DNA of 35,774 nt from a virus. Taxonomy: Duplodnaviria; Caudoviricetes. The notes under the pieces are model-generated. The model worked only from the letters and a program-made list of their open reading frames with translations. It made no database searches and was not told the origin of the DNA. The stretch's first letter is position 1, and each line of letters starts with the position of its first letter. The stretch spans positions 1 to 35,774 of the IMG/VR virus record IMGVR_UViG_3300017766_003544; one strand, written 5' to 3'. This document shows, one piece after another, positions 1 through 34,977 of the stretch. A program made the position numbers and the translations under genes.

Positions 1-58
1 AAAAGGAGAGAACGAGCTAGACCCCACCAGCGCAAAAAGATTCCTTTCCCACCCCCCC

Positions 59-296
59 GTGACCAGTGACCACCCTTCCACCCCCACAGCATCGACTCCT
101 GATATTACCAACTACCCTCCAACAGGTCACAAAGGTCACATGATCACACTTCCTGCAAAATCAAAGCCTCCAGCGTGACCATGGCGTGACCATTGTCGGC
201 GGAAAGCCCGTTTTTGTGACCTAAAAAAGGGGCGCGGGGTGCTCGATGCACCCTGCGCCCCTTCCTATGATGGTCTGTGACCATCCGCGTGATCAC
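59..296. repeat. Cluster of GTGACC/GGTCAC/GATCAC hexamers, candidate replication origin (iterons)
   Basis: GTGACC at 59, 66, 175, 186, 216 and 277; GGTCAC at 125 and 134; GATCAC at 142 and 291. The DNA is non-coding and directly downstream of the helicase gene. The origin role is inference. Confidence 0.5.
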
Positions 297-302
297 ACAT
301 CG

Positions 303-1922
303 TCACAGCCATTCGAGTGGATATTCAGCCCCTCGCCGCTGGTGACGCTTCCCAAAACGAAACGCCCGTCGTGTCGTCGTCGTGACCAGTTCGCGCCCTC
401 TCCATCGCTTCAGTTCGTGACCGATCCGCTTGCGATCCTTCTCCCCGAGTTCCTTGTCGCCCTCAGCGCCACAAAGATCCTCCAGCAGCTTCTCCGACCT
501 CGCTGCCGCAATGATGTCGTGAGTCGTGAACACTGCCTCCTTCAGCAGATCATCTCCCGCCTCCTTCTCCAGCCGCTCTGCGATACTCACCAGCAACTGC
601 CGCCACTCCTCGCCACGGCGGTCCCCGCTCATCGGCAGCTCCGCCTTCAGCATCGGCCTACCCAGCCCCTGCCCACCATCTGGCAAAGCAGCCACGATGC
701 CGCCGATCATCCCGCTCCATGCCTCAAAAGTAGGCTTACAATCCTGCCCCACAGGCTCCCCCTGGGACATCCAATGCCTCACCAGCGCAGACATCGCCGC
801 CAGTGACTGCGCCCGCACCTCGGGCCGTGACCAATACCCCGGCTCGATGTTCCTTTTAAATGTCCGCTTCTCGATGTCACCAGGCACGAACAATTCACAC
901 ACCAGAGACCGCCGCATCAAGTCGGGCGTGATCTCCAGATTGTTCGCCGTCACACTCACCGTCGTCACATTCGGCACATCAAACTCCTCATTGCCCCCGA
1001 GCTTGCGCCCCGCATGGCGTCTCGACGTAATGAACCGATTCAGCGCATTCGATGCCACCCAGCTCGGCGCATCATCCAGGAAAAGATAAGGCCTCATATT
1101 CATCGCCGTCGTGTTGAGCAGCTTCTCAAATTCCTCCCGACTCTCCGGCAGCGACACCGTCGCCACATCTCCGAAGACATGCGCCAGAGCCGCCTCCGCC
1201 AGCACGCTCTTCCCCGACCCCTGCTGATTCGCCACCCACAGAAAAAGCGGCCTCGGCGTCCCCGTCGGCAGCAACAGACGCGTGTAGGTCGAGAGCATCG
1301 CCGCGATCTGCACCGCGAACGAGCGATTGAGGAAAAGCCAGTCCTTCCGCACCTCCTGCTCCCACGCAAATTCAAACTCCCCAAACTGATCCCACAGCCA
1401 CTGCATCGCCGCCTGCACCGACATCTCCCGATCATACGGGATGCCATCATTGCACCACACCTTGCATTCCTTGTCGTAGCCAGCCGCCAGCCATTCCACC
1501 GCGCCCGACTCACGCCGCACCGGCACCGACACCGGCACGATCCCCTCCAGTTGTGGCAGCCGTCTCGTAAATTGCCGACACTCCAGCACCTTCGCGGCCA
1601 TATCCTTCCCCATCGTCATCACGCGGGGGCCTTGCTGGCCGAACTTAATGCATGTTACATACTCCTCGATCAGCGTGCAAAAGCGGTCCTTACTCACCGG
1701 CACCATCTTCCCCGCCTCCACCGTGACCACTTCATCACCGCGCGCAAAGATGTCACAGCGGGACAGCAGCCCCCCGAGCTGCTCCGCGATCTTCAGCGTC
1801 TGCTCATCCAGATTGATCTGCGGCACCATATCAGCCTGCCCAGGTAGATCGATCCCCGCCTGTGCAGCCAGCGGAGCCAGCAGCCTCAGCGTCTCCATCG
1901 GTATCTTCGCCGCATCATTCAT
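303..1922 (-). CDS. Phage P-loop NTPase / replicative helicase (primase-associated, SF3-like)
   Basis: Walker A ANQQGSGKS, Walker B YLFLDD, then VTANN...DLMRR. ATGA overlap with the upstream primase. Confidence 0.75.
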   Translation of the reverse strand: MNDAAKIPMETLRLLAPLAAQAGIDLPGQADMVPQINLDEQTLKIAEQLGGLLSRCDIFARGDEVVTVEAGKMVPVSKDRFCTLIEEYVTCIKFGQQGPRVMTMGKDMAAKVLECRQFTRRLPQLEGIVPVSVPVRRESGAVEWLAAGYDKECKVWCNDGIPYDREMSVQAAMQWLWDQFGEFEFAWEQEVRKDWLFLNRSFAVQIAAMLSTYTRLLLPTGTPRPLFLWVANQQGSGKSVLAEAALAHVFGDVATVSLPESREEFEKLLNTTAMNMRPYLFLDDAPSWVASNALNRFITSRRHAGRKLGGNEEFDVPNVTTVSVTANNLEITPDLMRRSLVCELFVPGDIEKRTFKRNIEPGYWSRPEVRAQSLAAMSALVRHWMSQGEPVGQDCKPTFEAWSGMIGGIVAALPDGGQGLGRPMLKAELPMSGDRRGEEWRQLLVSIAERLEKEAGDDLLKEAVFTTHDIIAAARSEKLLEDLCGAEGDKELGEKDRKRIGHELKRWRGRELVTTTTRRAFRFGKRHQRRGAEYPLEWL

Positions 1923-2980
1923 CGTCCCATCCTCCTTTGTAAAATGTTCGAGTTAGGCCGGGGACGCGGGTCCAGATACCACAGCTCCTGGAGAGACTCA
2001 CCGCGCAGACACCCCGGCAGCCGAGTCAGCCGCACCGCAGTCATCGCCGCAGGGTCAGCCCCCAGCGGAGCCAGCAGTTGCACCAGCATATCCCGCTGCA
2101 CATCCCACTCAGCTTTGGAGGCCACATCCACGCGCACCAGCGCATGCACACTCCGCCCGCCCGAAGTATAGATCGCCACGACCTGGAGCGGCAGTTGCAC
2201 CAGCAGCCGCAGCCATTCCGCCATCGGAGCCACATCATTCTCCAGCACCAGATAGCGCCACGCCGTCACGCAGGCACCATGCCTCCTGCCCCACTTAGCC
2301 TGGCCGTCAAAGCCCACCGCGTCACTGTTCACCTTCCATTCACCCGAGACCGGATTACAGAGGAACCACACCCCATCGGGACCGCCCAGCGGCAGATCCG
2401 ACTTCACCGGCTTCACCCCCCGATCACGGCCCAGCCTCCACCCGCTCCCGCCCACATGGTATCCATAATCCCCCTGCGACGTGAACTTCGTAAAGATCAG
2501 CAACTTCTCTCCCGCCTCATACAGCGCCTCCAGAAAAGTATCCCCCACCCCCCGCATCCCCGGCGTCACCGCCATCGGAGACACCGCCATCAGCCACTCC
2601 CGCGAGATCACCTCCTTCACATTCCCCGCCATCGCCTCCAGCTTCTTCAGATCAAACGGCGGACGCTTGACCCCACGCTCCGGCCTCGGAGCCGCAGCCG
2701 TTTTCCCATAGGCCGACACAGGTGACCGTTTATCCCCATTCTCCAGCCTCCAGATCGCACGGCGAAGTTGCAGGTTAAACTCCGCCACCTCCGCAGAGCA
2801 GCTCGAATGAAAACAAAAGCCCGTCGGCACCGTCTCCAGCGACACCTTAAAATCACGCCTCCCTCCGCCCTTCGTATGTCGCCCCACACCAGGGCAGGCA
2901 GCATACCCCCCCGGCTCCAGTGCCGCGATCCCCAGCAGCTCACAGGCCACCCTTTCCCGTTCGTTAATGTTCATCGTCAT
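1919..2980 (-). CDS. DNA primase/polymerase (AEP/RepB-primase-like) with N-terminal Cys/His cluster
   Basis: Motifs YLVLEND, YTSGGRSVHALVRV and DPAAMTAVRLTRLPG. N-terminal CPG..HT...CFHSSC. Adjacent to the helicase. Confidence 0.7.
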   Translation of the reverse strand: MTMNINERERVACELLGIAALEPGGYAACPGVGRHTKGGGRRDFKVSLETVPTGFCFHSSCSAEVAEFNLQLRRAIWRLENGDKRSPVSAYGKTAAAPRPERGVKRPPFDLKKLEAMAGNVKEVISREWLMAVSPMAVTPGMRGVGDTFLEALYEAGEKLLIFTKFTSQGDYGYHVGGSGWRLGRDRGVKPVKSDLPLGGPDGVWFLCNPVSGEWKVNSDAVGFDGQAKWGRRHGACVTAWRYLVLENDVAPMAEWLRLLVQLPLQVVAIYTSGGRSVHALVRVDVASKAEWDVQRDMLVQLLAPLGADPAAMTAVRLTRLPGCLRGESLQELWYLDPRPRPNSNILQRRMGR

Positions 2981-3115
2981 TATCTTGGTTGTAAATGATG
3001 GGGCTCACCGCCCGCGTTGCTTGCATCCATCCATGTCATAAAATCCCCGCCTAACAAAAGGAACTCCGATTGCTGCCAAAAACTGCCCACAGCTCACGCT
3101 ACACACACAGTAAAA

Positions 3116-4114
3116 TCAGGCCGCTCGCCGACTCTCAAAGCTCACCACATTCCCAGGCAACGGCAGCACATCCAGCGGACTCGTGATCGACTCCGCGAAC
3201 CTCGGCACACAATGCAGATACACCTGCGTCGTCTCCACCGAGTTATGCCCCAGCAGCTCCTGCACCTGCGTAATACTTGCCCCACCCGCCAGCAGATTCG
3301 TCGCGAAAGAATGCCGCAGCGTGTGGGCCGTCACCCGCTTATGCAGCCCCACCTTCCTCGTCGCCAGCTTCAGCGCCTTCCCCAACGTATCCTCATGCAC
3401 ATGATGCCGGCGCACGATGCCCGTGCGAGGATCAGTGCTCTCATTCATCGCAGGCCACAGCCAGAACCACGGCCACTCCCTTCCCCCATTCGTAAACTTC
3501 CGCTCCAGTCCATCCGGCAGAAAGATCGCATTCGCACCCGCAGCACGGTCCCGATCATACACAACACGCACCCGCTCAAAATGAGCATGCAGCCGATGCA
3601 CCAGAGACCGAGGTAGCACCGTCACCCGGTCCTTGTCCCCCTTACCCCCGCGCACCGTCACCAGACACGCCTCCAGATCGATGTCCTTCACCCGCAGCGC
3701 CAGCAGCTCCGCCACGCGCAGCCCCGAACCATACGCCAGCTCCGCCATCAGTCTCGTCCCCGCAGGCATCACCGCCAGCAGCCTTTGCATCTCCTGTGGA
3801 GACAGCCATGTCGGCAGCCGCTTCGGACGCTTCGCCCTCGCCCACTTCCCCAGATCCCCCAGCGGCTCCCTCACCACATCCCGATACAGAAAAACAATCG
3901 CATTCAGAGCCTGATTCTGAGTCGATGCCGAGCACCTCGGAGCCAGCTTCTCCAAAAATGTCCTCACCCTCTCCTCACGCGGCTGATGCCCACAAGCCTT
4001 CACATGCGCCCCAAAACGAGCGATCCACCCCGCATAAGTGACCTCAGTGTGCCTCGAAAGCCTCCGAATCCGGCAGACCATCCGCACCTGCTCAAGCATC
4101 TCGTCGAGTTTCAT
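3116..4114 (-). CDS. intI: Integron integrase (IntI-family tyrosine recombinase)
   Basis: SASTQNQALNAIVFLY, RLPTWLS, YGSGLR, GGKGDKDR, the IntI-specific insertion (LPDGLERKF...WPWFWLWP...DPRTGIVRRHH), HTLRHSFAT and LLGH...TTQVYLH. All catalytic R-K-H-R-H-Y residues are present. Confidence 0.95.
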   Translation of the reverse strand: MKLDEMLEQVRMVCRIRRLSRHTEVTYAGWIARFGAHVKACGHQPREERVRTFLEKLAPRCSASTQNQALNAIVFLYRDVVREPLGDLGKWARAKRPKRLPTWLSPQEMQRLLAVMPAGTRLMAELAYGSGLRVAELLALRVKDIDLEACLVTVRGGKGDKDRVTVLPRSLVHRLHAHFERVRVVYDRDRAAGANAIFLPDGLERKFTNGGREWPWFWLWPAMNESTDPRTGIVRRHHVHEDTLGKALKLATRKVGLHKRVTAHTLRHSFATNLLAGGASITQVQELLGHNSVETTQVYLHCVPRFAESITSPLDVLPLPGNVVSFESRRAA

Positions 4115-4135
4115 AAGTTTCCGTTTTTCACCTGT

Positions 4136-4172
4136 CTATCTGGAAAGTTGTTCGGGATAATCACTGTTCGGC
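4136..4172 (+). other. attI: attI-like recombination site A (crossover G|TT at 4166/4167)
   Basis: CTATCTGGAAAGTTGTTCGGGATAATCACTGTTCGGC lies just upstream of intI, the canonical attI position. GTTCGGCAG is the exact complement of CTGCCGAAC at the first attC. 32/34 nt identical to 32721-32754. Confidence 0.8.
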
Positions 4173-4405
4173 AGATACATGAAGCTTGGGTAGGCCGTTC
4201 CTATCAAATCTTCCACCCGACAATGCCACTCATCGAGTTCGTGAGATTTTGCCCATGCCTCCATGATCGGCTCAACCAGCACGAGGATTTCCAGCATAGC
4301 CTTTTCTCGGCACGCGCAGGCGTGGTGGTGAGTTGCGCCAACTGCCGAACAAGGCGAGGCAGCGCAACCCTCAGGAGCGGGCAAGTTTGTTTTTGGATCA
4401 GGCAT
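4136..4405 (-). CDS. Cassette 1 hypothetical protein (starts in attC1, ends in attI-A)
   Basis: 89 aa ORF. ATG at 4405 is inside attC1 and overlaps the upstream stop. The tail NSDYPEQLSR* is encoded by attI. Confidence 0.7.
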   Translation of the reverse strand: MPDPKTNLPAPEGCAASPCSAVGATHHHACACREKAMLEILVLVEPIMEAWAKSHELDEWHCRVEDLIGTAYPSFMYLPNSDYPEQLSR

Positions 4406-4446
4406 CTAGGGCGCTCCTTTCGGGTTGCTGCTCTTTTGCGTTCGCC
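4344..4446 (+). other. attC: attC site 1 (103 bp)
   Basis: R'' GCCGAAC, 5 nt, L'' GAG(G)CAGC ... L' GCTGCTC, 6 nt, R' GTTCGCC. The stem extends (CAACCC/GGGTTG, AGGAGCG/CGCTCCT). Confidence 0.88.
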
Positions 4447-4745
4447 TCAACAACTCGCGTCCAATGGATCGCCATGAAGTCGAGCAAGTGGTTTCCATCA
4501 TCTCCTATCGTTGACCGTCCCGCAGCTTTCGCCGCACGCCGTTGCAGGTTGATGCAGTCGTTTATCGTGGCGCGGAGGATGATGTGCGCGTCCAAGTCGT
4601 TGCCTTCCGGTCCGCACGCTGGCCACGGCTCGCACCATTGGAGCATCGTTTCATGCCGGGATTCCAGCAAGGCGAACAAGGCAGTGGACTCAACGCTGAC
4701 CGCGTTGGAGTCCCCCGTGTTTTCAATGTCTTCTTTCGCGGTCAT
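4398..4745 (-). CDS. Cassette 2 hypothetical protein (starts in attC2, ends in attC1)
   Basis: 115 aa. ATGA overlap at 4742-4745 inside attC2. The tail NAKEQQPERSALDA* comes from attC1. Confidence 0.7.
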   Translation of the reverse strand: MTAKEDIENTGDSNAVSVESTALFALLESRHETMLQWCEPWPACGPEGNDLDAHIILRATINDCINLQRRAAKAAGRSTIGDDGNHLLDFMAIHWTRVVEANAKEQQPERSALDA

Positions 4746-4769
4746 CGTGAGTCACTTTTATCGTTCGCT
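4671..4769 (+). other. attC: attC site 2 (99 bp)
   Basis: R'' GGCGAAC (complement of cassette start GTTCGCC), 5 nt, AGT(G)GACTCA(A)CGCTGACCGCG ... CGCGGTCATCGTGAGTCACT, 6 nt, R' GTTCGCT. Two extrahelical bases. Confidence 0.92.
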
Positions 4770-5014
4770 AAGGAGATTTTTACCGAGACATCCAGCACCG
4801 GCTGGAATCCCTTGATGTATTCGAGGAGGTGGTATCTTTCCGCCCATCCCTCCAGCCTGCCGGGACTCAGCATTTCGGAACCATCAGCACAGGATGCGAC
4901 ATCTGCATGGATAGCCTTGCGAGCCTGAGATTCAGAATCGAAAGGACCAAGCGGGTCTTGCTCTCCCCACTCTTGCGGGGTCTTTCCCCGCATTACATAG
5001 ATTGATCGTTTCAT
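4742..5014 (-). CDS. Cassette 3 hypothetical protein (ends in attC2)
   Basis: 90 aa with an AT-rich start context. The tail NDKSDSR* comes from attC2. Confidence 0.7.
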   Translation of the reverse strand: MKRSIYVMRGKTPQEWGEQDPLGPFDSESQARKAIHADVASCADGSEMLSPGRLEGWAERYHLLEYIKGFQPVLDVSVKISLANDKSDSR

Positions 5015-5024
5015 AAAAATAAAC

Positions 5025-5077
5025 CGCGAACAGGTCAGTCCACCGAACGCTCCGCGCCGGTGACTTTTGCGTTGTGC
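5025..5077 (+). other. attC: attC site 3 (very short, 53 bp)
   Basis: R'' CGCGAAC (6/7 complement of GTTCGCT), 5 nt, L'' AGT(C)CACC ... L' GGTGACT, 5 nt, R' GTTGTGC. Confidence 0.78.
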
Positions 5078-5265
5078 GAATCCATGAACTCGATCTCCGG
5101 TTTCTCGGCGCGCATTTGGCGATACTGCAACTCGACTCGTAGTGAGCCGATGACCACAGCAGCAGCGCGACTGATAGCCATTGCTTCCTCCGCGCTGATG
5201 CTTTTGTTTTCGAGTGCGGCCACGGTCGCGCTCATTTTCTCTCTGAGTGTGTTGATGTTCGTCAT
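5035..5265 (-). CDS. Cassette 4 gene b, small helical phage-type hypothetical protein (ends in attC3)
   Basis: 76 aa. ATGA overlap with gene a. The tail NAKVTGAERSVD* comes from attC3. Confidence 0.72.
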   Translation of the reverse strand: MTNINTLREKMSATVAALENKSISAEEAMAISRAAAVVIGSLRVELQYRQMRAEKPEIEFMDSHNAKVTGAERSVD

Positions 5266-5687
5266 ATTGTTTTGATTCTGGTTCCTAGTTTCCTGCTGAG
5301 TTTGATGTGCTCGCGTTTGATTTCGATTAATGCCTTGGGACAGTCTTCGACTTTCATGTGCAGGTAGCGGTTTGCCACGACGCTATCGGGCAGATTCTCT
5401 ATGTCCTTCCTCGCCTTGCGCTTCACAGCCACTGCTGTCCTTTTTGGTTTCCGAATCTTGCGTGGGTGGTTGGATGGTAGAACCGCCCACCGTTCACGTT
5501 CTGCTTTTCTCTCCACGTCCCTGATGCCTGCCATTGCTCGCCTTTGGCGCTGCTTTTCCATCCTCGCTGCCCATCGGCTTGGATCGGCCTTGATAGCGAC
5601 ATACCACGCAGGCAACGCACAACCAGACGGTGATGCCAAGCCATTCGCGGCGGGCTGCATTGGTGATAGTGCGTCAGGGGCGCTCAT
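5262..5687 (-). CDS. Cassette 4 gene a, basic phage-type hypothetical protein (starts in attC4)
   Basis: Lys/Arg-rich ORF. ATG at 5687 forms an ATGA overlap with the parB-like stop (alternative start 5696). Confidence 0.7.
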   Translation of the reverse strand: MSAPDALSPMQPAANGLASPSGCALPAWYVAIKADPSRWAARMEKQRQRRAMAGIRDVERKAERERWAVLPSNHPRKIRKPKRTAVAVKRKARKDIENLPDSVVANRYLHMKVEDCPKALIEIKREHIKLSRKLGTRIKTI

Positions 5688-5711
5688 GGCTGGCATACCT
5701 CGGCGTCCACC
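5617..5711 (+). other. attC: attC site 4 (95 bp), terminal site with non-canonical R' GTC
   Basis: R'' GCACAAC (complement of GTTGTGC), 5 nt, GGT(G)ATGCCA(A)GCCAT ... ATGGCTGGCATACC, 5 nt, GTCCACC. Confidence 0.82.
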
Positions 5712-7111
5712 CGCCCCTCCAAACCCGCCACATCCACCCCCAGCTCGCAGAGCAGCCCGCCCAACGCCGCACGCAGCTCCTCACGCGACTCCGCCGCATC
5801 AGCAGCCAGCACCATCAGCAGCACCATCACCTGGCGCAGTTGCCATCTCTGGCTTCGATCCTTCGCCAGCCAGCCGCGCAACTCATCCGCCGACGCCATC
5901 CCCAGCCAGGCCGACACCGCCCCCGCGTCCACATCCGTCGCCAGATGCACCAGCAGCTCATGAAAGCACTCCCACGGCGGCCCTGTCATCGCATCCGTCG
6001 GATTCGCCTTCAGGTGTTCCCAAAGCGCATTAAACATCACCTTCATCCAGCGGCCATCCACATCGTCCGCAGGAGCAGAGGCAGACGCACGCTCCAGCGA
6101 TGGACCATCCCCAGCATGCACCGTCACCTCCCTCTCCGCCACCGGCTCCGACTCCGGCACCTCCGCAGCCTCCACCGACTCCGCATCGCGCAGCATCTTC
6201 TTCGACACCAGTAGCACAAACCTATCATCACGCCGCGGCGCAGGCACCACATACACCGGCACCCCCAGCCCCTTCGCCTTCTCCTGCCACTGCCTGCCAT
6301 CCGCATCACGCGGCATGTAGCCATCGCCAAACTCATAGTCAGGCCACGGCTGCCCCGACTCCCCCTGCACATACTCCCCACGCTGACCCCACTCCACAAA
6401 GTGATACCCATCCGCCACCGGATACTTCTTCATCAGCACACCCACCAGCCGCAGCCAGGCCGCCAGCCACTTCTTTGGCTGCACATACTTCGCCTGGATC
6501 GCCGCCTCAGCCGCCTTGTAGCTCAGCGGCTCATTGCCCACCGCATCACAAAGAACCATCTGGAGAGCCCCGCGCATCTCCTCCCCGCGATCCAGCGGCA
6601 GCAGCAGCTCCGCCACATGCAGAGAAAGCCGACCATCCGCCAGCGCCTCGCGCCCTTGCTGCGGCAGCATCTCCCCCAGGTCAAAGAAGAGCTGCACCCG
6701 CTCCACCGACCGACCCAGCGCCGGAGCCAGATCCCCCACCGTCATCCCCATCCCCACGCCCACCTCCACCGCAGTCACCAGCTCCTCCGCATTCAGCGCC
6801 ACCGTGTGCCCGTGATCTTGCAACAAATAAAGGTAGGCATCCCCCTCATCGTCAAACTGGTGGACCACCTGGAGACACCCCCCCCAGCCCAGCTCCTTCA
6901 TCCCCGCAAAGCGGCGGTGCCCCTTCAGAAGAAAGTCCCCCTCCTCCCGCTCCCACACATGGATCGCATCCTGGAGCCCATTCGCCCGCAGAGATTCCAC
7001 CATCTCAGGGATGCCCTCATAGACCCCCTGCCGAGGATTCGCGCTCCACTCCCTCACCCGGCCCAGCGATCTCATCACCGGCCCCGTCATCGTATGTTTA
7101 TTGTCGTTCAT
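5684..7111 (-). CDS. ParB/Srx N-terminal domain protein
   Basis: NPR...SLRANGLQDAIHVW...LLKGHRRF motif followed by an HTH-like segment (VGDLAPALGRSVERV). The start may be 7156. Confidence 0.8.
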   Translation of the reverse strand: MNDNKHTMTGPVMRSLGRVREWSANPRQGVYEGIPEMVESLRANGLQDAIHVWEREEGDFLLKGHRRFAGMKELGWGGCLQVVHQFDDEGDAYLYLLQDHGHTVALNAEELVTAVEVGVGMGMTVGDLAPALGRSVERVQLFFDLGEMLPQQGREALADGRLSLHVAELLLPLDRGEEMRGALQMVLCDAVGNEPLSYKAAEAAIQAKYVQPKKWLAAWLRLVGVLMKKYPVADGYHFVEWGQRGEYVQGESGQPWPDYEFGDGYMPRDADGRQWQEKAKGLGVPVYVVPAPRRDDRFVLLVSKKMLRDAESVEAAEVPESEPVAEREVTVHAGDGPSLERASASAPADDVDGRWMKVMFNALWEHLKANPTDAMTGPPWECFHELLVHLATDVDAGAVSAWLGMASADELRGWLAKDRSQRWQLRQVMVLLMVLAADAAESREELRAALGGLLCELGVDVAGLEGRVDAEVCQP

Positions 7112-7152
7112 CGTTAGAAAAAAAGTTTGTTGTTGTTCATTACCCCGCCCCA

Positions 7153-7947
7153 TCAAATCCCCAGCCGTCTCCGCTCCGCCTCCTCCGCCAGCCCTTGCAG
7201 CTTCCGCCGCAGTTGCAGCGGACTCAGCCCGCGAAACTCCGCCCGCACCGGCACCCCATGCACCAGCTCCTCATGCTCGCGCCTCAGAGCCTCACGCACA
7301 CACACCGGCAGATCCTCCTCCTCACTCGCCTTGCGATTCGTGTTCCCCATCTGCGCCACCTCACAGCGCCGACGCGTCACCCGCTTCTTCGCAAACCAAA
7401 ACTCCGTCAGCCCCATCTCATCGTGCATATCGCGTAGCTGGGACTTCTCCACCACGCCCCGCACCACTGCCTGCATCGCCGCACACACCGCCGAGCGCGG
7501 ATTCCGCGCCCGCAGTCCCCACAGCTTCCCGATCGCCTCAAAGCTCGGCAGCGCCGCCCGCACCACCGGCCCGCGCTCATACGCATACGCCAGCAGAGAC
7601 ACCCGGCGGCCCAGCGCCAGTGCCTCACTTAAACCTCCGGTAATCATCTCCACCACCTGTCCGCGATCTTCAAAAGTCGCATCAGCCACACCAATGTGCA
7701 GATAGTCCCAGCACAAGGTAGAAACCACATGCAGCTCCTTCCGAAGTTTCGCCCGTGTTGGCGGCAGACATCCCGGCATAAGACGCTCACACAGCAGCCA
7801 TGCGCGCAGCCCCATCTCTTTCAGCGAGCACGCATCCACCACACAGGCCACCAGCACCTGGCTAAAAAGCGTCACCCGTGCCGACCTCTCCCCAGCCCCG
7901 TCCACACGGGACGAGTCCAGCGCCGCAATGTCATAGAATTCGTTCAC
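7153..7947 (-). CDS. Hypothetical early protein
   Basis: GTG start overlapping the upstream stop. Part of the coupled operon. Confidence 0.6.
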   Translation of the reverse strand: MNEFYDIAALDSSRVDGAGERSARVTLFSQVLVACVVDACSLKEMGLRAWLLCERLMPGCLPPTRAKLRKELHVVSTLCWDYLHIGVADATFEDRGQVVEMITGGLSEALALGRRVSLLAYAYERGPVVRAALPSFEAIGKLWGLRARNPRSAVCAAMQAVVRGVVEKSQLRDMHDEMGLTEFWFAKKRVTRRRCEVAQMGNTNRKASEEEDLPVCVREALRREHEELVHGVPVRAEFRGLSPLQLRRKLQGLAEEAERRRLGI

Positions 7948-8228
7948 GCCGCCACCTCCTCGCCCGCACGTCTTTCCCAAAGTTCCATTACCGGCTGGAG
8001 CGCCGCCCTCTGCCGCTCCGCCTCCTGCTGATAATTTCGCGCCAGCGCCATCCCCGTCCGCACCGCAGGCATCTCCGTCTCGATCAGCTCCGTCATCTCC
8101 TTCGCCGTCACCCCCGGCTTCAGCAGCGCATCCGCCACCATCCGCAGCACCATCGCCTGCTGCTCCCGCTCACGGCGCGCACGCACCATCAGCTCCTCCG
8201 GCTTGAAGTTAAAAAGATTCCCACTCAT
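7944..8228 (-). CDS. Hypothetical early protein
   Basis: 94 aa, helical, 4-nt overlaps on both sides. Confidence 0.65.
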   Translation of the reverse strand: MSGNLFNFKPEELMVRARREREQQAMVLRMVADALLKPGVTAKEMTELIETEMPAVRTGMALARNYQQEAERQRAALQPVMELWERRAGEEVAA

Positions 8229-8800
8229 AGCTTCCAGCCCTCCCCCTTCAGCCTCTCAAAATTCCGCTCGATCCGGTCCAGCGACACCTCACGCAGAGAC
8301 CCCGCCAGTCCACGACCCCGCCCCATCGCCCGCATCAGCGCCGAATGCGCCGTGCAGTCCGCATCATAGAAGGCCCGCACAAAACCACGCTGCGCCTTCG
8401 CACGCTCCCACATCACCACCAGCGCCGCCTGCCGGTCATAGCGTGCGTCCAGATCCTTCTGCGCCTTCTGCTCCTTGTCCGCACGGCGCACCGCCGCCGC
8501 CTTCGCCAGCGCCGCATGCAGCAGACCATGCCGGCCACGCGTCGCATAGCTCCGCTGCCCCATCGTCCGGCGCGGCGTCTTCACACCCTCCTCCTCATCA
8601 TCCTCAGCCTCCACCGCCTGATCAAACTCCGGGTCATACATCCCCCGGCGGTAGAGTGCAAAGTCCAGCAGCTTATGCTCATAGCCGCCCACCGTCGGCA
8701 TATGCTCCCACGTCCGCCCATTAAACGTCTGCTCCCAGGCCTCACAGCCAGGCCGCGCCGACTTGCGGATCACCTTCGTGATTCGAGTTCCCGCGATCAT
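8225..8800 (-). CDS. Hypothetical early protein
   Basis: 191 aa, ATGA overlaps on both sides. Confidence 0.65.
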   Translation of the reverse strand: MIAGTRITKVIRKSARPGCEAWEQTFNGRTWEHMPTVGGYEHKLLDFALYRRGMYDPEFDQAVEAEDDEEEGVKTPRRTMGQRSYATRGRHGLLHAALAKAAAVRRADKEQKAQKDLDARYDRQAALVVMWERAKAQRGFVRAFYDADCTAHSALMRAMGRGRGLAGSLREVSLDRIERNFERLKGEGWKL

Positions 8801-9174
8801 GCCAGCACCTCCTTCTCCTCGGCACTCATCGCCAGCATCGCATCACGCCGCGCCCGTTGGGCCAGCGTCAGCTTCACATTCGGCTGATCCATCAGCCCCC
8901 GGCACCACAGCCAGAAGTTCATCGCCCGCACATCATCAGCCCCCGACACCGATGGCATATCCCGCCACGTAAAGCCCCGCACCTTCCCCATCGCGTCCAG
9001 CTTCTGAGTGCATTCCCTCGGCAGCCAGCTCGACTCTGGCGACCACACCATCACCTTCCCCTTCCGCCGCTCCGCAGGGTAGCGAGTCAGCACCGGCTTC
9101 GATCTCGAATCCGCCACCACGCCCCCCGCAGCCAAAGCCCGCGCCACCATCCGCCGAAGATCCGCCGGACTCAT
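8797..9174 (-). CDS. Hypothetical early protein
   Basis: Start MSPADLRR at 9174 gives an ATGA overlap with the upstream gene. Confidence 0.6.
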   Translation of the reverse strand: MSPADLRRMVARALAAGGVVADSRSKPVLTRYPAERRKGKVMVWSPESSWLPRECTQKLDAMGKVRGFTWRDMPSVSGADDVRAMNFWLWCRGLMDQPNVKLTLAQRARRDAMLAMSAEEKEVLA

Positions 9175-9386
9175 CGAGCACCCCCTTTCATCACCGCAAA
9201 GTCCACACAAGCCCCGGCCAGCGCCAGCGCCCGGTTGATCTCCACCAGCTTCTCATCATCCAGAGCCAGAGACACCGTCTCCGCCCCCTCAAACATCACC
9301 GCCATCAGCACCCCCGATGCCGAATGAATCGTCACCGAGATCCGCTCCCCCGTTTGGGGTCTCACTGTTTCAAAATCGTCCATCAC
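9171..9386 (-). CDS. Hypothetical early protein
   Basis: 71 aa, preceded by GGAGGAG, overlapping both neighbours. Confidence 0.6.
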   Translation of the reverse strand: MMDDFETVRPQTGERISVTIHSASGVLMAVMFEGAETVSLALDDEKLVEINRALALAGACVDFAVMKGGAR

Positions 9387-9691
9387 AGTCTCCTCCTCCG
9401 TTTGGTTGTTCCATTGCTAAACCCCTCAGCCGCCTGGACATCCGCCACCATGTAGGTCGCAAACGCACCACGCGTCCCCTTCATCGGCTTCAGACCCCGC
9501 GCCCGGCACCGCTTCGCCAGATTATCCAGCCGCAGCTCCAGCGTCTCCCCCGGCACCACCCAGCGCCGCATCAGCTCCTCCGCCGTCAGCGGGCGCGACT
9601 GCCCCGCCGGTGACAGCACCGCCGCCACCGCCTCAATCAGCGACCGCAGCCCCCGCACCTCCTCGGTGAGTTGTTCCAGAGTCGCACTCAT
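9383..9691 (-). CDS. Putative DNA-binding / excisionase-like protein
   Basis: Start MSATLEQL at 9691. PLTAEELMRRW...GLKP...TYMVADV resembles a winged-HTH Xis/MerR pattern (inference). Confidence 0.45.
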   Translation of the reverse strand: MSATLEQLTEEVRGLRSLIEAVAAVLSPAGQSRPLTAEELMRRWVVPGETLELRLDNLAKRCRARGLKPMKGTRGAFATYMVADVQAAEGFSNGTTKRRRRL

Positions 9692-9828
9692 CGGCACAGC
9701 GCCCCTCCCAGCAAAGCCAGCATCACATGCACCAGCACCAGAAGCATCGCACAGGCCCACGGCACCGCCGCATCCGTCAGACACAGCGGCCCCTCCAGCC
9801 ACAGGCAAAAAGCACGCACCCACCTCAT
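9688..9828 (-). CDS. Small membrane protein
   Basis: 46 aa from ATG 9828 with a hydrophobic C-terminal half. ATGA overlaps on both sides. Confidence 0.45.
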   Translation of the reverse strand: MRWVRAFCLWLEGPLCLTDAAVPWACAMLLVLVHVMLALLGGALCR

Positions 9829-10016
9829 GGCCGGGACACCTCCAAAACTTGCGCCTGATAGCGCAGGCACGCCCGGTGGATGTGCCCCACCACATGCAGC
9901 GCCCACCCCGCCAGAGCAGACAGCACCAGCAGCATCACCACACGCCCCAGAAAGCGGCGCACACCACCCCCACGGCGCGGCTCGCACCGCGTCAAAGTCG
10001 AAGCCAGCGTCATCAT
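9825..10016 (-). CDS. Small membrane protein
   Basis: Hydrophobic segment VVMLLVLSALAGWALHVV. Coupled to both neighbours. Confidence 0.55.
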   Translation of the reverse strand: MMTLASTLTRCEPRRGGGVRRFLGRVVMLLVLSALAGWALHVVGHIHRACLRYQAQVLEVSRP

Positions 10017-10327
10017 GGCCGGTGCGCCCCTCCCAAGCCCTTACGCACCAGCAGCGCCCGCAGATCCCGAGGCGCAGGCGGAAAGCTCGCAGCTTGTAGT
10101 TCGGGCTTCAGCCCGTTCTGACTCTCCACACTCAGATGCTCGTCCTGCCAAGCCCGCAGCCTCGCCGCCCCCGCCTCCAGATAATCCCCCACACGGGAAC
10201 TCGCATTCCCCCCACCCGCAGCCGCCCCACTGGCAGACACCCGTCTGTCCGATGCCGAGCGCCCCATCGGTTGCGCCTGCCCGGCCCCCCGTCTTCTTCT
10301 GTTCGTGTTTTGATTTTCGTAGATCAT
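10013..10327 (-). CDS. Hypothetical early protein (contains a REP-like repeat in frame)
   Basis: GGAGG upstream. The peptide ESQNGLKPELQA is encoded by the 34-bp repeat. Confidence 0.5.
   Translation of the reverse strand: MIYENQNTNRRRRGAGQAQPMGRSASDRRVSASGAAAGGGNASSRVGDYLEAGAARLRAWQDEHLSVESQNGLKPELQAASFPPAPRDLRALLVRKGLGGAHRP
10092..10125 (+). repeat. 34-bp GTAG-type REP-like palindrome, copy 1
   Basis: GCTTGTAGTTCGGGCTTCAGCCCGTTCTGACTCT, identical to 11906-11939. GTAG is followed by the hairpin CGGGCT-TC-AGCCCG. Confidence 0.8.
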
Positions 10328-10393
10328 CGTCTTCCTCCGTGTCTTCGTTGTTGGTTGTGCCGCAGAGCCCCTGCGGTGCGGGATTGTAAAAAA

Positions 10394-10564
10394 TCAGGCC
10401 AGCTTCAGCACCTCGCGCAGCCCGTTGCGCACATCGCAGAGCCGATCCACAATCGCTCCCTGCTCCCGGTTCAGCTCCTGAGTCTCCGGCATTGCCGCCA
10501 GCTTCTCAGCCACCAGCGCCATCATCGCCGCCATTGCCGCCCGCTCCTGGGTTGTCAGTTTCAT
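10394..10564 (-). CDS. Small hypothetical early protein
   Basis: MKLTTQERAA..., helical, second gene of the early operon. Confidence 0.6.
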   Translation of the reverse strand: MKLTTQERAAMAAMMALVAEKLAAMPETQELNREQGAIVDRLCDVRNGLREVLKLA

Positions 10565-10595
10565 AAAGGTCAGTGAGGTCAGTGAGGTCAAAACT

Positions 10596-10778
10596 TCAGG
10601 CCGCCGCCAGTTGGCTAACTAGGACCTTCAGCCCCCGCTCCAGAGAGAGTCTCATCACATCCTGCTTAGAGAGATTCGTGGATCTCGATGCCTCATCGAT
10701 CTTGGCATCCAGATCCGTCGAAAGGCGGACTGGGACGCTCACTGATTCAGGTCTTCTTGGGCTCGTTTTCTTGCTCAT
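10596..10778 (-). CDS. Ribbon-helix-helix (Arc/CopG-like) Cro-analogue
   Basis: SVSVPVRLSTDLDAKIDEASRSTNLSKQDVMRLSLERGL fits the RHH pattern. First gene after the leftward promoter. Confidence 0.75.
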   Translation of the reverse strand: MSKKTSPRRPESVSVPVRLSTDLDAKIDEASRSTNLSKQDVMRLSLERGLKVLVSQLAAA

Positions 10779-10784
10779 GGGAAC

Positions 10785-10839
10785 CACTGTATGCAAAACG
10801 CATACAGTGTCAACAAAAATGTGTGCAAAGTTTATACAT
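10785..10839. promoter_or_regulatory. Divergent immunity switch: leftward sigma70-type promoter plus operators
   Basis: Minus strand TTGACA(10813-10808)-16 nt-TACAGT. A perfect inverted repeat CACTGTATGC-N5-GCATACAGTG (10785-10809) overlaps it, with a related degenerate copy at 10819-10839. Confidence 0.75.
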
Positions 10840-10854
10840 AGGCTATTCTAAGCC

Positions 10855-11211
10855 ATGAGCACACCCAATACCGTCTCGTTCCCCGTGCGTATGCCCGCAG
10901 ACCTGAAAGCACAAATATCCGCACTCTCGATCAACCTCGGCATCTCAGAGCAGGACACCATGCGCCTCTGTCTTCGAATCGGGTTAACCGACATCGAATC
11001 CATTAAAAAGGATCATTCCGCACTGGTCAAAGAAGCTGCTGACGAGTGCGGCTCCAGCTTCGCAAGCTGGGCTAAAAACAAAAGCGCAGCAAAAACCAAA
11101 CTTCCACCCATCAAGCCCCAGAACTCAGGCAAGGTCTATGAGTTCCCATGCGATAGCGGCTTGAAAGTTGCCGACGAACACAACAAAGGCGCAGGCTTCG
11201 ACGGCCTCTGA
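10855..11211 (+). CDS. Ribbon-helix-helix repressor (CI analogue)
   Basis: TVSFPVRMPADLKAQISALSINLGISEQDTMRLCLRIGL, paralogous to the divergent RHH gene. Confidence 0.72.
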   Translation: MSTPNTVSFPVRMPADLKAQISALSINLGISEQDTMRLCLRIGLTDIESIKKDHSALVKEAADECGSSFASWAKNKSAAKTKLPPIKPQNSGKVYEFPCDSGLKVADEHNKGAGFDGL

Positions 11212-11233
11212 CATCGCCTAACCATCACCCCAC

Positions 11234-11267
11234 AAAAAAAGCCGAGGCTCATCACCTCGGCTTTTTT
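11234..11267. terminator. Bidirectional intrinsic terminator
   Basis: A7-GCCGAGG-CTCATCA-CCTCGGC-T6 between convergent genes. Confidence 0.88.
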
Positions 11268-11722
11268 CATTTCAACGGCACACGACAGGCCGGGCAGAGC
11301 CGCGACCTCGGTGCCACAGAATTACCGCACCTTCCGCAGGTCATCACATAGCTCGTATGATCGATGATCAGCGCCGCCACGATCAGCAGCAGCCCCACCG
11401 GCCAGAATAAAATCAGCATCACCAGACCTAACAGAAAACAAAACATCGCCCCGCATCCGCTCCCCTTGCTCCGGCGCTTCTTTCTCACCGGAGCCATCTG
11501 CAACGTCGGCGGGATAAAAGCAGGCTCCCGGCCTGCCTCCATCTCACAGGCAGCCAGCTCATCATCCAGCCCATACCACACCTCCTCCCCTTGGCGGCAC
11601 ACCAGCGCCTCCGCCGTCACAGAGCCAGCCTCATGCATCTTCTGGAGCTGCCCCAAAGCAAACGGCCCCTCAGCATCAGCATCTGGGGTGCGGCAAAGCC
11701 AGTAAGTAGTCGGCAAATTCAT
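11267..11722 (-). CDS. GYF_2 (DUF4339)-like membrane protein with C-terminal zinc ribbon
   Basis: EGPF.L.QL..M...G......LVCRQG...W motif, two TM helices, CGRC...CPAC. Confidence 0.7.
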   Translation of the reverse strand: MNLPTTYWLCRTPDADAEGPFALGQLQKMHEAGSVTAEALVCRQGEEVWYGLDDELAACEMEAGREPAFIPPTLQMAPVRKKRRSKGSGCGAMFCFLLGLVMLILFWPVGLLLIVAALIIDHTSYVMTCGRCGNSVAPRSRLCPACRVPLK

Positions 11723-11775
11723 CCTCGCATCCTCCCCGAAAAGTCAATAACGTCAACACCGTCCATCCCGTCCCC

Positions 11776-11904
11776 ATGATCGCCGCCACCACCTGGGAAA
11801 CCATCGCCGCCCTATCCCTCGGCATCCTCTGCGCCATCGGCTGGGGCCTCCTCACCGGCACCCTCCGCTTCCCCAAACGCCGCCGCCCACGCCGCCGACG
11901 TTAG
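11776..11904 (+). CDS. 42-aa single-TM peptide with Arg-rich tail (not in the ORF track)
   Basis: MIAATTWETIAALSLGILCAIGWGLLTGTLRFPKRRRPRRRR*, read directly from the sequence. Confidence 0.55.
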   Translation: MIAATTWETIAALSLGILCAIGWGLLTGTLRFPKRRRPRRRR

Positions 11905-11905
11905 C

Positions 11906-11939
11906 GCTTGTAGTTCGGGCTTCAGCCCGTTCTGACTCT
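11906..11939 (+). repeat. 34-bp GTAG-type REP-like palindrome, copy 2
   Basis: Identical to 10092-10125. Lies between convergent stops, abutting the integrase stop. Confidence 0.8.
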
Positions 11940-13056: not shown

Positions 13057-13157
13057 GCCACGACCTTCGCGAGCCGTCGTGTGCCGTTCAAGCGTCGCTT
13101 TCGGTCGTTTTCCGGCCCTTTTGAGCCTCTTTCAAGCCTCCATCTCTCTTGGAGAGA

Positions 13158-13180: not shown

Positions 13181-13254
13181 TGCGGGTTAGTGGCTGGAAT
13201 TACTTGGCATCGTGCGGCGGTGTGCCGTTTGTGTGCCGGTGTGGACTGAATTAA

Positions 13255-23567: not shown

Positions 23568-23570
23568 GAG

Positions 23571-32654: not shown

Positions 32655-32720
32655 CGACACCGGGGGGTGTCAAAGGATGCGGGCTCGCAAAGCGGGTGCG
32701 TGTTTCTGGTTTGGGGGTGA

Positions 32721-32757
32721 CTATCTGGAAACTTGTTCTGGATAATCACTGTTCAGC
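32721..32757 (+). other. attI: attI-like recombination site B (crossover G|TT at 32751/32752)
   Basis: CTATCTGGAAACTTGTTCTGGATAATCACTGTTCAGC, 32/34 identical to site A. GTTCAGCAAAAT is the exact complement of ATTTTGCTGAAC at attC5. Confidence 0.8.
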
Positions 32758-33094
32758 AAAATACGAGCGCCTCGCCCTTCTCGGCGGTTGCTTCCATGTC
32801 GTCCGCGAGTTCGAGCGCGTTTTGTTTGTCGTGACCGTCGGGCCAGTCCGCCACGAGTTCGCGGAGTCTCGGCGCGACACGCTTGCATTCCTCTGGCGTC
32901 ATTTCGCCTTCGCAGTCGGAGTGCATGAGCAGCGGCGCGATGCCGTCGGTGATTTTGTGCCACGGTCTTTCCGGTGGCCCGAAGCCCGCCATCTCGCGGA
33001 GGTTCATACCGATTTCCGCAGCGAGCCGACACCGGAAGGCGTTGAAGCCGGAGTATGACCACTGCGCGTTTGATTGTCTGAATGCTAGTCCCAT
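32753..33094 (-). CDS. Cassette 5 hypothetical phage protein (HSDCEGE motif)
   Basis: MGLAF...WSYSGFNAFR.RLA...LLMHSDCEGEM. The TGA stop overlaps the core site. Confidence 0.78.
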   Translation of the reverse strand: MGLAFRQSNAQWSYSGFNAFRCRLAAEIGMNLREMAGFGPPERPWHKITDGIAPLLMHSDCEGEMTPEECKRVAPRLRELVADWPDGHDKQNALELADDMEATAEKGEALVFC

Positions 33095-33100
33095 AATTTT

Positions 33101-33192
33101 GCTGAACAAGACGCTGGACCGAAAGTGGCGGGCCGCGTCATTTTTGTTTTCGTGAGTTGCCGACCGCCACTTCGGTCAGCTTTTCGTTAAAT
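33101..33192 (+). other. attC: attC site 5 (92 bp)
   Basis: R'' GCTGAAC, 5 nt, GCT(G)GACCGAA(A)GTGGCGG ... CCGCCACTTCGGTCAGC, 5 nt, R' GTTAAAT. R' overlaps the terL TAA stop. Confidence 0.92.
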
Positions 33193-34977
33193 GAAGCCGG
33201 GGACGAGGCGGGCGATCCAGAGCGCGATGAGGCCGAGCTTGGAGCAGTCGCCATAGTGGTCGTGGGGGACGCGTTTCCACTGGTTGGTGGACTTGTCCTT
33301 CATCTGGCCGGTGTGGCCCATGATGAGGGAGGCATCAGCATCGCTCGGGAGGTGGAAGCCGGGGGTGCTGCGGCGGGCGATGCGGGAGCCGTAGAGGTCA
33401 TCCTTTGCCTGGGTGTCTGAGTAGGTGTAGAGCTTCAGGCCGGGACGGGAGGCGGCGCGGGTTTCGTTGACGGTGCCGTGCTTGGCGTCGCTGCCTTTGG
33501 TTGGCCAGTAGAAGCCGCCGGAGGCTTCGCAGATGTCATACTGTGTCTCGGTGAGGTAGCCGGAATCAATGTAGCCGATGCGGGGGACGATGCGCTCATC
33601 GGTGCCGGGGATGGTGTAGAGGCGATGGCGGAGGAAGTCGGCGGAGACGAGCTCGCGGGAGCTGAGGAGGGTGCCCCAGTCAATGACGAAGAGTCCGCCT
33701 TCGGGAGAGATGGCGGTGACGGTCCAGTGAGTGAGTGCTTCGCCGGGGTCGGCAGTGAGGACGAGGAGCTTGGGCCGGAAGGGCAGGGAGCCGCGCCCGT
33801 AGTCGGTGGAGATGCAGGCTCGGACGGTTTCCTCTTTGATGTTATGGGCGAGGTCGGACCAGCAGTTGGCGAGCCATGAGTTTGCGTGGTTTTGATGGTT
33901 GCCGAGGAGGTCGGCGGGCTTGATGCGGTTCCAGGCGACATCGCCGAAGGTGAGGGCGGGGGAGTAGAAGGACGGGAGGCGAAAGGATTTGTTTCGCTGG
34001 GCGGTGGCGGGGTTGAGGTCGATGGGCTCGACGCGGTCGAGCATGGGGAGGCGGTCTTCTTCGCGGATGGGGTAGGCGCAGGAGGGGCAGATGTAGCGGA
34101 TGGTTTCGCGGACTTTTTGTTCGACCCAGAGGCCGTGGGAGTCGCGGGAGTCTGGGGACCAGACGAGGCTGCGGTAGTCGCTATCGACTTTCTCGTAGCC
34201 GGGGTGTTTGGAGTCGTGGCTTTTATCGGGCCAGTCTTCGAAGGGGAAGAGGTGCTGACATTCGGGACAGGAGACGAGGAAATGAGTTTGTGATCCGGCT
34301 TCGTAGCGGGTCCAGAAAGGGTGCGTGACAATGTTTGGGGACGAGCTTTTGTAGCGGAAGGCGTCGGGGCCGAAGGACTTGGCACGCTCGTCGGCGAGGT
34401 CCATGGGGTGCGCTTCGGGGCTGTCTTCGTTGGAGTGGTGCTCAAATTTGCAGCACTCGTCTTGAAAAATATCGCGTTCGGAAGTGGAGGCGAGGTTGGC
34501 GGGGGAGTTGGTGCCGGTGAGGCGGATGGCTCCGCCGAGCATGTCCATCTCCATATCCGTGAAGTGGTCGGAGTTGGCGGGTTTTCGCTCGGAGAGGATG
34601 GGGTTGAGATTGATGAGGGGCTGGAGTTTTTTTCTGGAGACGGCTTTTTGGGCGGTGTCTTTGGTTGGGAAAACGATGAGCTTTGGGGAGGGGACGTTGA
34701 CCATCCGGTAAACGAGCATCATGAGGAGGCCGAAGGTCTTGAAGACCTGGGTGGCGGAGCAGGTGGTGACGTCGGTGATGCCACGGGCGGGGTCGGCGCA
34801 TTCGAGGATGTGCTGGGCGAAGCCTTGATGCTGGAGGCTGAAGGGGGCCATGGCTCCATGGACGCGGGCCGGGGACATGGAGCGGGGGATTTGAATATGC
34901 CGACTGAGGAACTCGACCACGGCGGGGCGCTGCTCAACCAAGGCGAGGCGCAGGAGATGGGCGCGGCGGTCACTCAT
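33187..34977 (-). CDS. terL: Terminase large subunit (lambda GpA family)
   Basis: SATQVFKT (Walker A variant), IFQDE (Walker B), SSP, CPEC...CPSC, FRLPSFYSP, IDSGY, KGSD and HYGDC motifs. Confidence 0.92.
   Translation of the reverse strand: MSDRRAHLLRLALVEQRPAVVEFLSRHIQIPRSMSPARVHGAMAPFSLQHQGFAQHILECADPARGITDVTTCSATQVFKTFGLLMMLVYRMVNVPSPKLIVFPTKDTAQKAVSRKKLQPLINLNPILSERKPANSDHFTDMEMDMLGGAIRLTGTNSPANLASTSERDIFQDECCKFEHHSNEDSPEAHPMDLADERAKSFGPDAFRYKSSSPNIVTHPFWTRYEAGSQTHFLVSCPECQHLFPFEDWPDKSHDSKHPGYEKVDSDYRSLVWSPDSRDSHGLWVEQKVRETIRYICPSCAYPIREEDRLPMLDRVEPIDLNPATAQRNKSFRLPSFYSPALTFGDVAWNRIKPADLLGNHQNHANSWLANCWSDLAHNIKEETVRACISTDYGRGSLPFRPKLLVLTADPGEALTHWTVTAISPEGGLFVIDWGTLLSSRELVSADFLRHRLYTIPGTDERIVPRIGYIDSGYLTETQYDICEASGGFYWPTKGSDAKHGTVNETRAASRPGLKLYTYSDTQAKDDLYGSRIARRSTPGFHLPSDADASLIMGHTGQMKDKSTNQWKRVPHDHYGDCSKLGLIALWIARLVPGFI

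Follow-up and report, generated by a model that had tools for sequence, protein, structure and literature searches.

How can a phage keep an array of integron cassettes in one of its own operons when every cassette gene runs towards the integrase, the reverse of canonical integrons? The question is raised by the virus record IMGVR_UViG_3300017766_003544 (Duplodnaviria; Caudoviricetes), a near-complete phage genome whose entire 35,774 bases are here called the window. Among its early genes lie an integron integrase gene (intI), an attI site and four gene cassettes with attC sites. A preliminary description had taken these for a complete integron, adapted to the phage and reshuffling its accessory genes. 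The parts of an integron are indeed present; the description overlooked a second attI with a fifth cassette, and no match to a cassette promoter of the usual kind (Pc) was found. The proposed reshuffling agrees well with our comparison, in which the integrase (IntI) carries the IntI-specific insertion and the differences among related phages fall precisely on the G|TT crossovers. We consider it likely that the intact IntI excises and inserts cassettes at G|TT, so that their genes would be expressed from promoters of the phage operons rather than from an integron promoter.

The integrase, its sites and cassette exchange among related phages

The intI product scores 331.8 bits against TIGR02249 (cut-off 265) and aligns with IntI4 of PDB 2A3V at E 1.8e-61, free of gaps over the IntI-specific insertion that matches to XerA skip; profile and insertion both bear out the intact integrase gene of the preliminary description. 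R133, K158, H264, R267, H290 and Y299, which we take to be the catalytic residues of tyrosine recombinases, are all present. The gene appears to be under purifying selection: three of seven intI pairs give dN/dS of 0.16-0.20, and in the other four synonymous sites are saturated and pN is 0.10-0.15. In many related loci, intI overlaps the next phage gene by stop and start codon. We considered whether intI and attI together form a cassette and rejected this, since the 3' end of intI has no conserved crossover. An R''-like heptamer stands alone at 3049-3055, in the 135-bp gap between intI and the primase-like gene, with no matching R' found. In L026 (7947-8459) and L027 (8001-8240), in-frame internal deletions leave both ends of intI and its overlap with the next gene in place. 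Control of intI by LexA and the SOS response is common in integrons, though not universal; a putative Verrucomicrobia LexA-box pattern has no match in the window.

The attI motif is kept beside intI in 16 curated related loci and the DNA beyond its G|TT crossover differs among them, so the attI-like site noticed earlier is well founded. The cassette-1 gene takes its final 10 residues and its stop from the bottom strand of this attI, ending 21 nt ahead of the intI start. In the main array, crossovers fall at the G of 4166, 4440, 4763, 5071 and 5705. In cassettes 1 to 4 the opening heptamer is complementary to the R'' of that cassette at 7, 7, 6 and 7 of 7 positions, the footprint of integrated circles, as previously claimed. 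All four attC sites of that account were located, with AAC/GTT cores, L boxes, extrahelical bases and a hairpin. Folding of the whole bottom strand is better than in shuffled sequences for attC1 (z -2.7) and attC2 (z -4.1). A covariance model, built from 34 sites with only 7 base pairs and hence mostly a sequence model, recovered attC1, attC2 and attC4, all of them in its training set, and missed the 53-nt attC3; trained on phage sites, it also detects sites of bacterial integrons. Unconstrained folding scans for attC were too noisy (26 per strand) and were replaced by scans for box geometry together with this model. At position 4408 in attC1 the window has A, and contigs of both X1 and X4 have G.

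Here and below, L numbers denote related loci, G numbers genomes, and X1 to X4 runs with public contigs, X1 possibly being the source sample. A single IntI query led to 27 viral loci. The window and 16 loci were curated by hand into 66 cassettes, or 54 once 12 duplicates had been removed, including four from the distant L025 and one weak call (L015 cassette 6). The curated set excludes L003, L013, L017, L019-L021 and L023, which duplicate other loci or are too short, L014 and L022, for which DNA upstream is missing, and L024 and L027, in which the scan gave no attI. All four variable bases of the cassette start agree with the cassette's own R'' in 47 of the 54 non-redundant cassettes, compared with 6.6% of random pairs; in the full set this holds for 58/66, and agreement with the following R' for only 4/66. 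A block common to two arrays extends between consecutive plus-strand G|TT points; the attC at its right end belongs to it and the one at its left does not. Single cassettes recur in unlike contexts, L001_3 being identical with L006_10 (709/709) and L004_1, in first position, with L006_4, in fourth (516/516), and exact duplicates stand within the arrays of L028 (641 bp), L179 (368 bp) and L175 (305 bp). L009, L010 and L011 have attI and distal cassettes in common and differ in the attI-adjacent part, and on the platform shared by L009-L012 the first cassette differs. The ParB slot is retained to the base in the sister phage G005 (homology ends at 5704), which has two different cassettes there and an intI with an internal deletion; G005 was also the only result of a search for an empty site with ParB.

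Public contigs tell the same story at the level of single bases. They diverge from the window at 4166 (X3, X4), 4440/4442 (X4), 4766 (X3, X4), 5071 (X1, X3) and 5706 (X1, with a regular G|TT there). One X1 contig has 5071-5706, that is cassette 4, with other neighbours on both sides, and X4 has cassette 2 twice with 580 other letters between. Content and order thus vary at the crossover, 4166 included, as the preliminary description would predict, and on this comparative evidence cassettes move as units bounded by G|TT. A 59-letter X4 contig (depth 50) joins the inside of cassette 1 (4232-4260) to the inside of cassette 2 (4619-4648) on the opposite strand, off any G|TT; X4 has cassettes 1 and 2 without cover of intI. 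Cassette 3 of L005 and of L006 have the same 917-bp body and different attC right arms, which suggests recombination inside the attC loop. Further attC clusters lie in L012 (1-768) and G003 (57-1217), on the opposite strand and several kb from intI.

Inverted genes and a common reading frame

All cassette genes of the window are inverted against their own attC and face intI. In the main array they lie on the minus strand in line with the parB-like, intI, primase and helicase genes, exactly as first described. That the inverted frames are the true genes is indicated by PHROG matches, found for 15/63 inverted and 1/45 forward open reading frames (ORFs); the cargo so identified comprises seven DNA methyltransferases, an RNA ligase, a PAPS reductase, a primase zinc finger, three regulators and two proteins of unknown function. 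Cassettes of L001 and L026 contain weak relatives of the 76-aa gene of cassette 4, and a protein atlas search with the cassette-2 protein gave no usable match.

These genes cross the crossover in one fixed frame. The longest crossing frame reads AAC as a codon in 44/54 cassettes and uses another frame in two, eight having no frame of >=30 codons, so that 44/46 cassettes with a crossing gene obey the rule. In the AAC-codon frame, the attC bottom strand contains a stop at 53/54 sites, as against 20 and 29 in the other frames; an ATGA overlap of stop and start is present in 14/54, and attI supplies a stop after 2 to 10 codons in 17/17 platforms. Among 25 control sites from Verrucomicrobia genome loci the stop is in frame at 17/25 (Fisher p 3e-4 against the phage value), a gene starts inside attC at 5/25 (38/54 in phages), and genes run forward at 20/25. 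Two of the 25 belong to L031, later found to be a phage-like contig with inverted genes; the control is therefore conservative, and the crude ORF-length test taken up below errs. A second control of 59 sites from mixed genome loci (3 in both sets) has 48 forward genes and 34 stops. Loci with more distant phage IntIs (41-63% identity) also carry inverted genes (L166, L171, L174, L175 and, most clearly, L179), and L180 carries forward genes.

We propose a reaction like that of bacterial integrons, in which IntI joins the folded bottom strand of an attC to attI and a new cassette would enter beside attI, at the promoter-distal end of the array. The mRNA would then carry the attC bottom-strand sequence, and most cassette genes would be without a stop of their own: such a gene would cross the crossover with an AAC codon and borrow a short tail and a stop from the next attC or attI, the borrowed attC often containing the start of the next gene. 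With one common frame, every gene would be terminated, and probably translationally coupled, after any reshuffle. The likely benefit is a quick turnover of accessory genes, chiefly DNA methyltransferases, that would counter host restriction.

Transcription would start well upstream. The candidate early promoter, which the preliminary description placed near 10800 and regarded as serving both cassettes and integrase, matches the consensus at 10 of 12 positions and overlaps an inverted repeat (10778-10812) between divergent small regulator genes; this region is likely a lysis/lysogeny switch with repressors of the ribbon-helix-helix (RHH) rather than the helix-turn-helix (HTH) type. From 10775 down to 303, successive genes lie -13 to +135 nt apart, a spacing that agrees with a single early transcript. 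A consensus scan for a Pc-type promoter gave no plus-strand match in intI or attI.

Array ends, the second attI and the integrase lineage

Where an array stops is as regular as where its cassettes begin. The last crossover coincides with the 3' end of a resident gene in 8/8 distinct arrays with a clear end, L007, L015 and L016 being excluded because their ends are unclear. It lies at or overlaps the stop codon in L001, L002, L009/L010, L012, L018 and the second site of the window, and three bases before the stop in L006. At the first site of the window and in L026, the end is ParB's natural last codon, as judged from G004, where this position has no array. These ends fit the use of secondary sites by IntI, filtered by selection: an array would become attached behind a resident gene, probably through IntI recombination at such a site, and would persist only where that gene survives. 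In E. coli, IntI1-3 have been shown to join attC to genomic GWT sites, called attG (10.1101/2022.09.11.507474). The distal junctions at phage gene ends fit such insertion. However, three types of distal junction in the phage arrays read G|TC, outside the attG consensus, and the available part of that study describes no preference for gene ends, unlike what is seen here.

The array overlooked earlier lies between the terminase and head-completion genes (Table 1). Its attI-2 has no adjoining intI, and its motif is expected 0 times by chance in 100 shuffles. Cassette 5 agrees with its own R'' at 7/7 bases, and the distal crossover of attC5 (33186/33187) falls directly behind the terminase stop codon. 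The ORF at 32721-33062, whose tail is like that of attI-1, was tried as the cassette-5 gene and rejected in favour of 33094-32753. The attI-2 leader resembles those of L007 and L002, not attI-1, and the site is therefore likely the remnant of a second integron that lost its intI. The same slot is occupied in L008 by a complete integron and in G005 by an unrelated small gene without an att site. Arrays with attI and no adjoining intI also occur at a second site of L016 and, before the tape-measure gene, in G004. With a single attC plus an attI, the second site is not a cluster of attC sites lacking an integrase (CALIN). If the ends of the genome are joined, for which synteny with L031 speaks, the distance to intI would be about 6 kb, and arrays of this kind are likely served in trans by the phage IntI or by a host IntI. 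One X3 contig joins the attI-2 leader to cassette 4; read as a joint from 4165 to 5071 it had looked like a deletion at attI-1, a reading we rejected. Loose ends of X1 at 4136 and 4173 were likewise rejected as variation, being the window's own second attI.

Table 1. Positions of the integron parts and neighbouring genes in the window, and of two features in other loci
Feature	Position	Strand	Remarks
intI, integron integrase	3116-4114	-	332 aa, intact; TIGR02249, 2A3V alignment, presumed catalytic residues
attI-1	4136..4172	+	crossover G|TT at 4166/4167
Cassette 1, 274 bp	4167..4440	+	gene 4405-4136 (-), 89 aa; start inside attC1, stop inside attI
attC1	4344..4446	+	box geometry, covariance model, folding
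Cassette 2, 323 bp	4441..4763	+	gene 4745-4398 (-), 115 aa; start in attC2, stop in attC1
attC2	4671..4769	+	ATGA stop/start overlap on bottom strand
Cassette 3, 308 bp	4764..5071	+	gene 5014-4742 (-), 90 aa; stop in attC2
attC3	5025..5077	+	short (53 nt), weakest by folding; boundary 5071 confirmed by contigs
Cassette 4, 634 bp	5072..5705	+	genes 5696-5262 (144 aa) and 5265-5035 (76 aa), both minus
attC4	5617..5711	+	distal crossover G|TC at 5705/5706; gives last residues and stop of ParB-like gene
ParB-like resident phage gene, upstream of array	5684..7156	-	TIGR00180 E 1.6e-7, below cut-off; PHROG matches
Primase-like gene, downstream of intI	1919-2980	-	phrog_2597 primase E 1.1e-14
Helicase-like gene, downstream of intI	303-1922	-	label read from P-loop motif, no named match
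Candidate early promoter	10786..10813	-	consensus scan, sigma-70-like, 10 of 12
Divergent small regulator genes flanking promoter	10596-10796; 10855-11211	-; +	first RHH-like, RHH_1 E 0.002
attI-2 with leader	32691..32757	+	attI match 32727-32753; crossover G|TT 32751/32752; no adjoining intI
Cassette 5, 435 bp	32752..33186	+	gene 33094-32753 (-), 113 aa, stops at crossover; phrog_11026 E 1e-7
attC5	33101..33192	+	49.3 bits (not in model training); z -2.1
Terminase large subunit, resident gene upstream of second array	33187..34977	-	PF05876, PF20454
Phage-type first cassettes in host integrons	L124 about 1990-2359; L142 about 2650-3104		
L186 (MW202573), published phage attC cluster, apparently inverted kind	2069-2132 and 2794-3186		

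The rest of the genome identifies its bearer. Family profile searches place terminase, portal, Clp-type head protease, major head protein, tail fibre and endolysin in the window, together with a second, ordinary tyrosine integrase gene (11938-13056), and it is therefore a temperate tailed phage. PF19263 matches within the primase/helicase region 303..2980 at E 6e-6. The sister phage G005 (37,161 bases, rated 100% complete) shares its ends with the window and is about 90% identical to it along most of the genome; several other modules are unlike. The host likely belongs to the Verrucomicrobiaceae, because the sole close IntI among 80 genome loci (L028, 76%) sits in a bin of this family, and because L031, from another such bin, has a phage-like gene order of parB, cassettes, intI, primase, helicase, terminase and portal. 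A 37-bp stretch common to the window (13158-13194) and G004 resembles the 3' end of a tRNA and is likely attP; it has zero exact matches in 145 family and 201 phylum genomes. GC skew reverses near 13,000-13,200, beside the ordinary integrase gene. The early region has two copies of a 32-bp stretch, at 11908-11939 and about 10090-10125. Many late genes (13832-35703, minus strand) have a TTGACA hexamer a few bases ahead of their start with no clear -10 box (n=14 in the window), and attI-2 and the attI of G004 both lie just upstream of such a motif. Long plus-strand frames at 16974-18965, 22155-24632 and 25312-27042, antisense to late genes, are likely shadows of high-GC codon use. An Rfam scan of positions 1-12000 gave a single chance match.

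The integrase has a lineage of its own. The IntI family numbers 159 proteins at E<=1e-100. A quick tree of 65 integrases groups the 12 phage-type IntIs in one clade (SH-aLRT 96), which L025 and L029/L031 join on long branches (99), the chromosomal IntIs of Verrucomicrobiaceae being placed elsewhere. Identity is at most 52% for 79/80 genome loci. The best IntI match in a set of 50,697 GenBank phage records reaches 43%; the virus Rctr41k (KX853513), with an integrase match of 39%, was set aside, no attC being found upstream. An IntI match is present in 59/145 family genomes, the phage type in G001 only.

Several observations weigh against a working integron in the service of the phage. The intI gene is internally deleted in L026/L027, cut short in L023 and frameshifted in L025, and it was not found in G004 (a record 98% complete); it is therefore dispensable. 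The host-family genomes with an IntI of their own could do the shuffling. As whole bottom strands, attC3 and attC4 fold no better than shuffles (z +0.6 and +0.8), even though L''/L' stems with bulged bases do form, and attC4 terminates in G|TC instead of G|TT. The five main-array genes have zero Pfam, NCBIfam or PHROG matches, and the ORF-length test favours the inverted strand in only 40/54 cassettes. Since the phages sampled are related, their cassettes do not count as independent. The public contigs of the window's cassettes showed no excised circle, and the X3 joint of attI-2 with cassette 4 is a single contig of depth 2 with 28 letters on its short side. Finally, the promoter scan found 2 sites against 2.4 by chance and the terminator scan is also at chance level; of the transcription scheme first proposed, the consensus match and the tight gene spacing stand, and co-transcription is something that we therefore only infer.

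Some of these points feed the alternative that survives best, namely that the cassettes are real and mobile, host chromosomal IntI does most of the shuffling and the phage intI is an occasional, decaying passenger. Besides the broken or missing genes and the host integrases, it draws on the attI sites without intI and on the phage attC sequences being of the host's attC family, host sites scoring up to 69 bits with the phage attC model. We nevertheless think it unlikely, as phage IntIs form a diverse clade with conserved protein sequence, the phage attI is conserved beside intI and differs from the host leaders compared, and the stop/start overlap couples intI to the next phage gene in many loci. 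Capture of an inert fragment of a host chromosomal integron, comparable to the prophages of Vibrio and Shewanella (PMC9892861), would account for the shared attC family and for the composition of the array, with a lower GC (0.55) than the flanks (0.62-0.65) and a skew of -0.04 where the flanks have about -0.3. This explanation is very improbable and largely refuted: a close IntI is found in 1/80 genome loci and the phage type in 1/145 family genomes, so that near-identity to a host integron is absent and the clade is separate; host cassettes face forward at 20/25 sites and the phage cargo is phage-like; and arrays vary among near-identical platforms. We would give hardly any credence to ordinary cassettes flipped by top-strand recombination, which does invert cassettes (PMC5027507), or to ordinary mosaicism at conserved intergenic hairpins, even though early regions of phages do show mosaicism and other modules of the sister phage are unlike as well, since whole-cassette inversion retains the usual relation of gene and attC that is reversed here, and homologous recombination would not yield base-exact ends between unlike attC, blocks running G|TT to G|TT with the right-hand attC, or the match to own R'' rather than following R'.

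Cassettes may also leave the phage. In the host arrays L124 and L142 the gene of the first cassette is inverted and has its start within attC, which suggests cassette flow from phage to host integrons; in a third host array, L133, an inverted gene does not start inside attC. The inverted first cassettes in L124 and L142 would be transcribed antisense from the host Pc. Because all eight clear distal junctions lie at gene 3' ends and two host integrons carry a phage-type first cassette, we tentatively raise a further possibility, which we hold to be doubtful: a phage-specific IntI lineage may graft attC onto resident stop codons, making frame-locked cassettes, seed extra attI sites in early and late operons, and export cassettes to host integrons. 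A distal junction at a gene 3' end would be only a half-made cassette in such a scheme, one without its own attC. If true, it would be a route for the making of integron cassettes.

Relation to known systems and meaning for phages and hosts

Phage attC cassettes, several of them with DNA methyltransferases, and complete integrons in temperate phages have been reported before (PMC9892861). The complete ones are a subset of a Vibrio chromosomal integron, class 1 mosaics, or have an IntI 95% identical to one from a Shewanella chromosome, and the portion of the text available to us describes no phage-specific IntI clade, gene inversion or frame rule, unlike the present phages. By our own scan, the TJE1 cluster of that paper has forward genes, which also sets it apart, and the MW202573 cluster looks inverted, with its clearest attC on minus and genes on plus; an example of the inverted type may thus have been drawn already in Fig. 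2D of the same paper. In the literature searched, phage integrons are only host-like integrons or integrase-less clusters, and a phage IntI clade with inverted, frame-locked cassettes was not found, most subscription journals lying outside the scope of the search.

Compared with canonical integrons (class 1, sedentary chromosomal, and IntI4 of 2A3V; PMC4889954, PMC5027507), the phage system has each gene reversed relative to the attC of its cassette and pointed at intI. The array has no match to a Pc-type promoter, its attC and attI are coding, attI is promoter-distal, and a second attI lies far from intI. Canonical integrons depend on promoterless genes inserted in the orientation of Pc (PMC5027507). 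With genes facing intI and no Pc, we therefore do not file the phage system among them: it appears to work like an integron and is a variant, not a canonical one. Integrons with an inverted integrase ("reverse" integrons of Treponema and others, PMC4889954) are alike in that intI is co-directional with the cassette genes, and differ in that intI is here on the minus and attC on the plus strand. A likeness in expression is offered by ORF-11/ORF-18 of attI1 and short ORFs in attC (PMC8876359), where a frame crosses the crossover, borrows the neighbour's stop, and att sites mediate translational coupling. However, these are short helper peptides on the top strand, whereas in the phages cargo genes cross on the bottom strand in one fixed frame at almost all junctions.

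Integron chemistry seems to have been rebuilt for phage use, with reversed genes, att sites that serve as protein tails and stop/start junctions, and several docking sites. The frame rule amounts to a design principle, by which an operon can be shuffled without breaking translation. Such a system would supply phages with a site-specific engine for the mosaicism of accessory regions, carrying methyltransferases that could counter restriction. Host integrons are reported, in the titles of papers, as stores of anti-phage genes, and cassettes may pass from phages into them, which bears on the long-standing question of cassette origin. Judging from the genomes compared here, this group of related phages likely reorders its accessory genes by means of a device for which, until now, bacteria have been the main source of examples.

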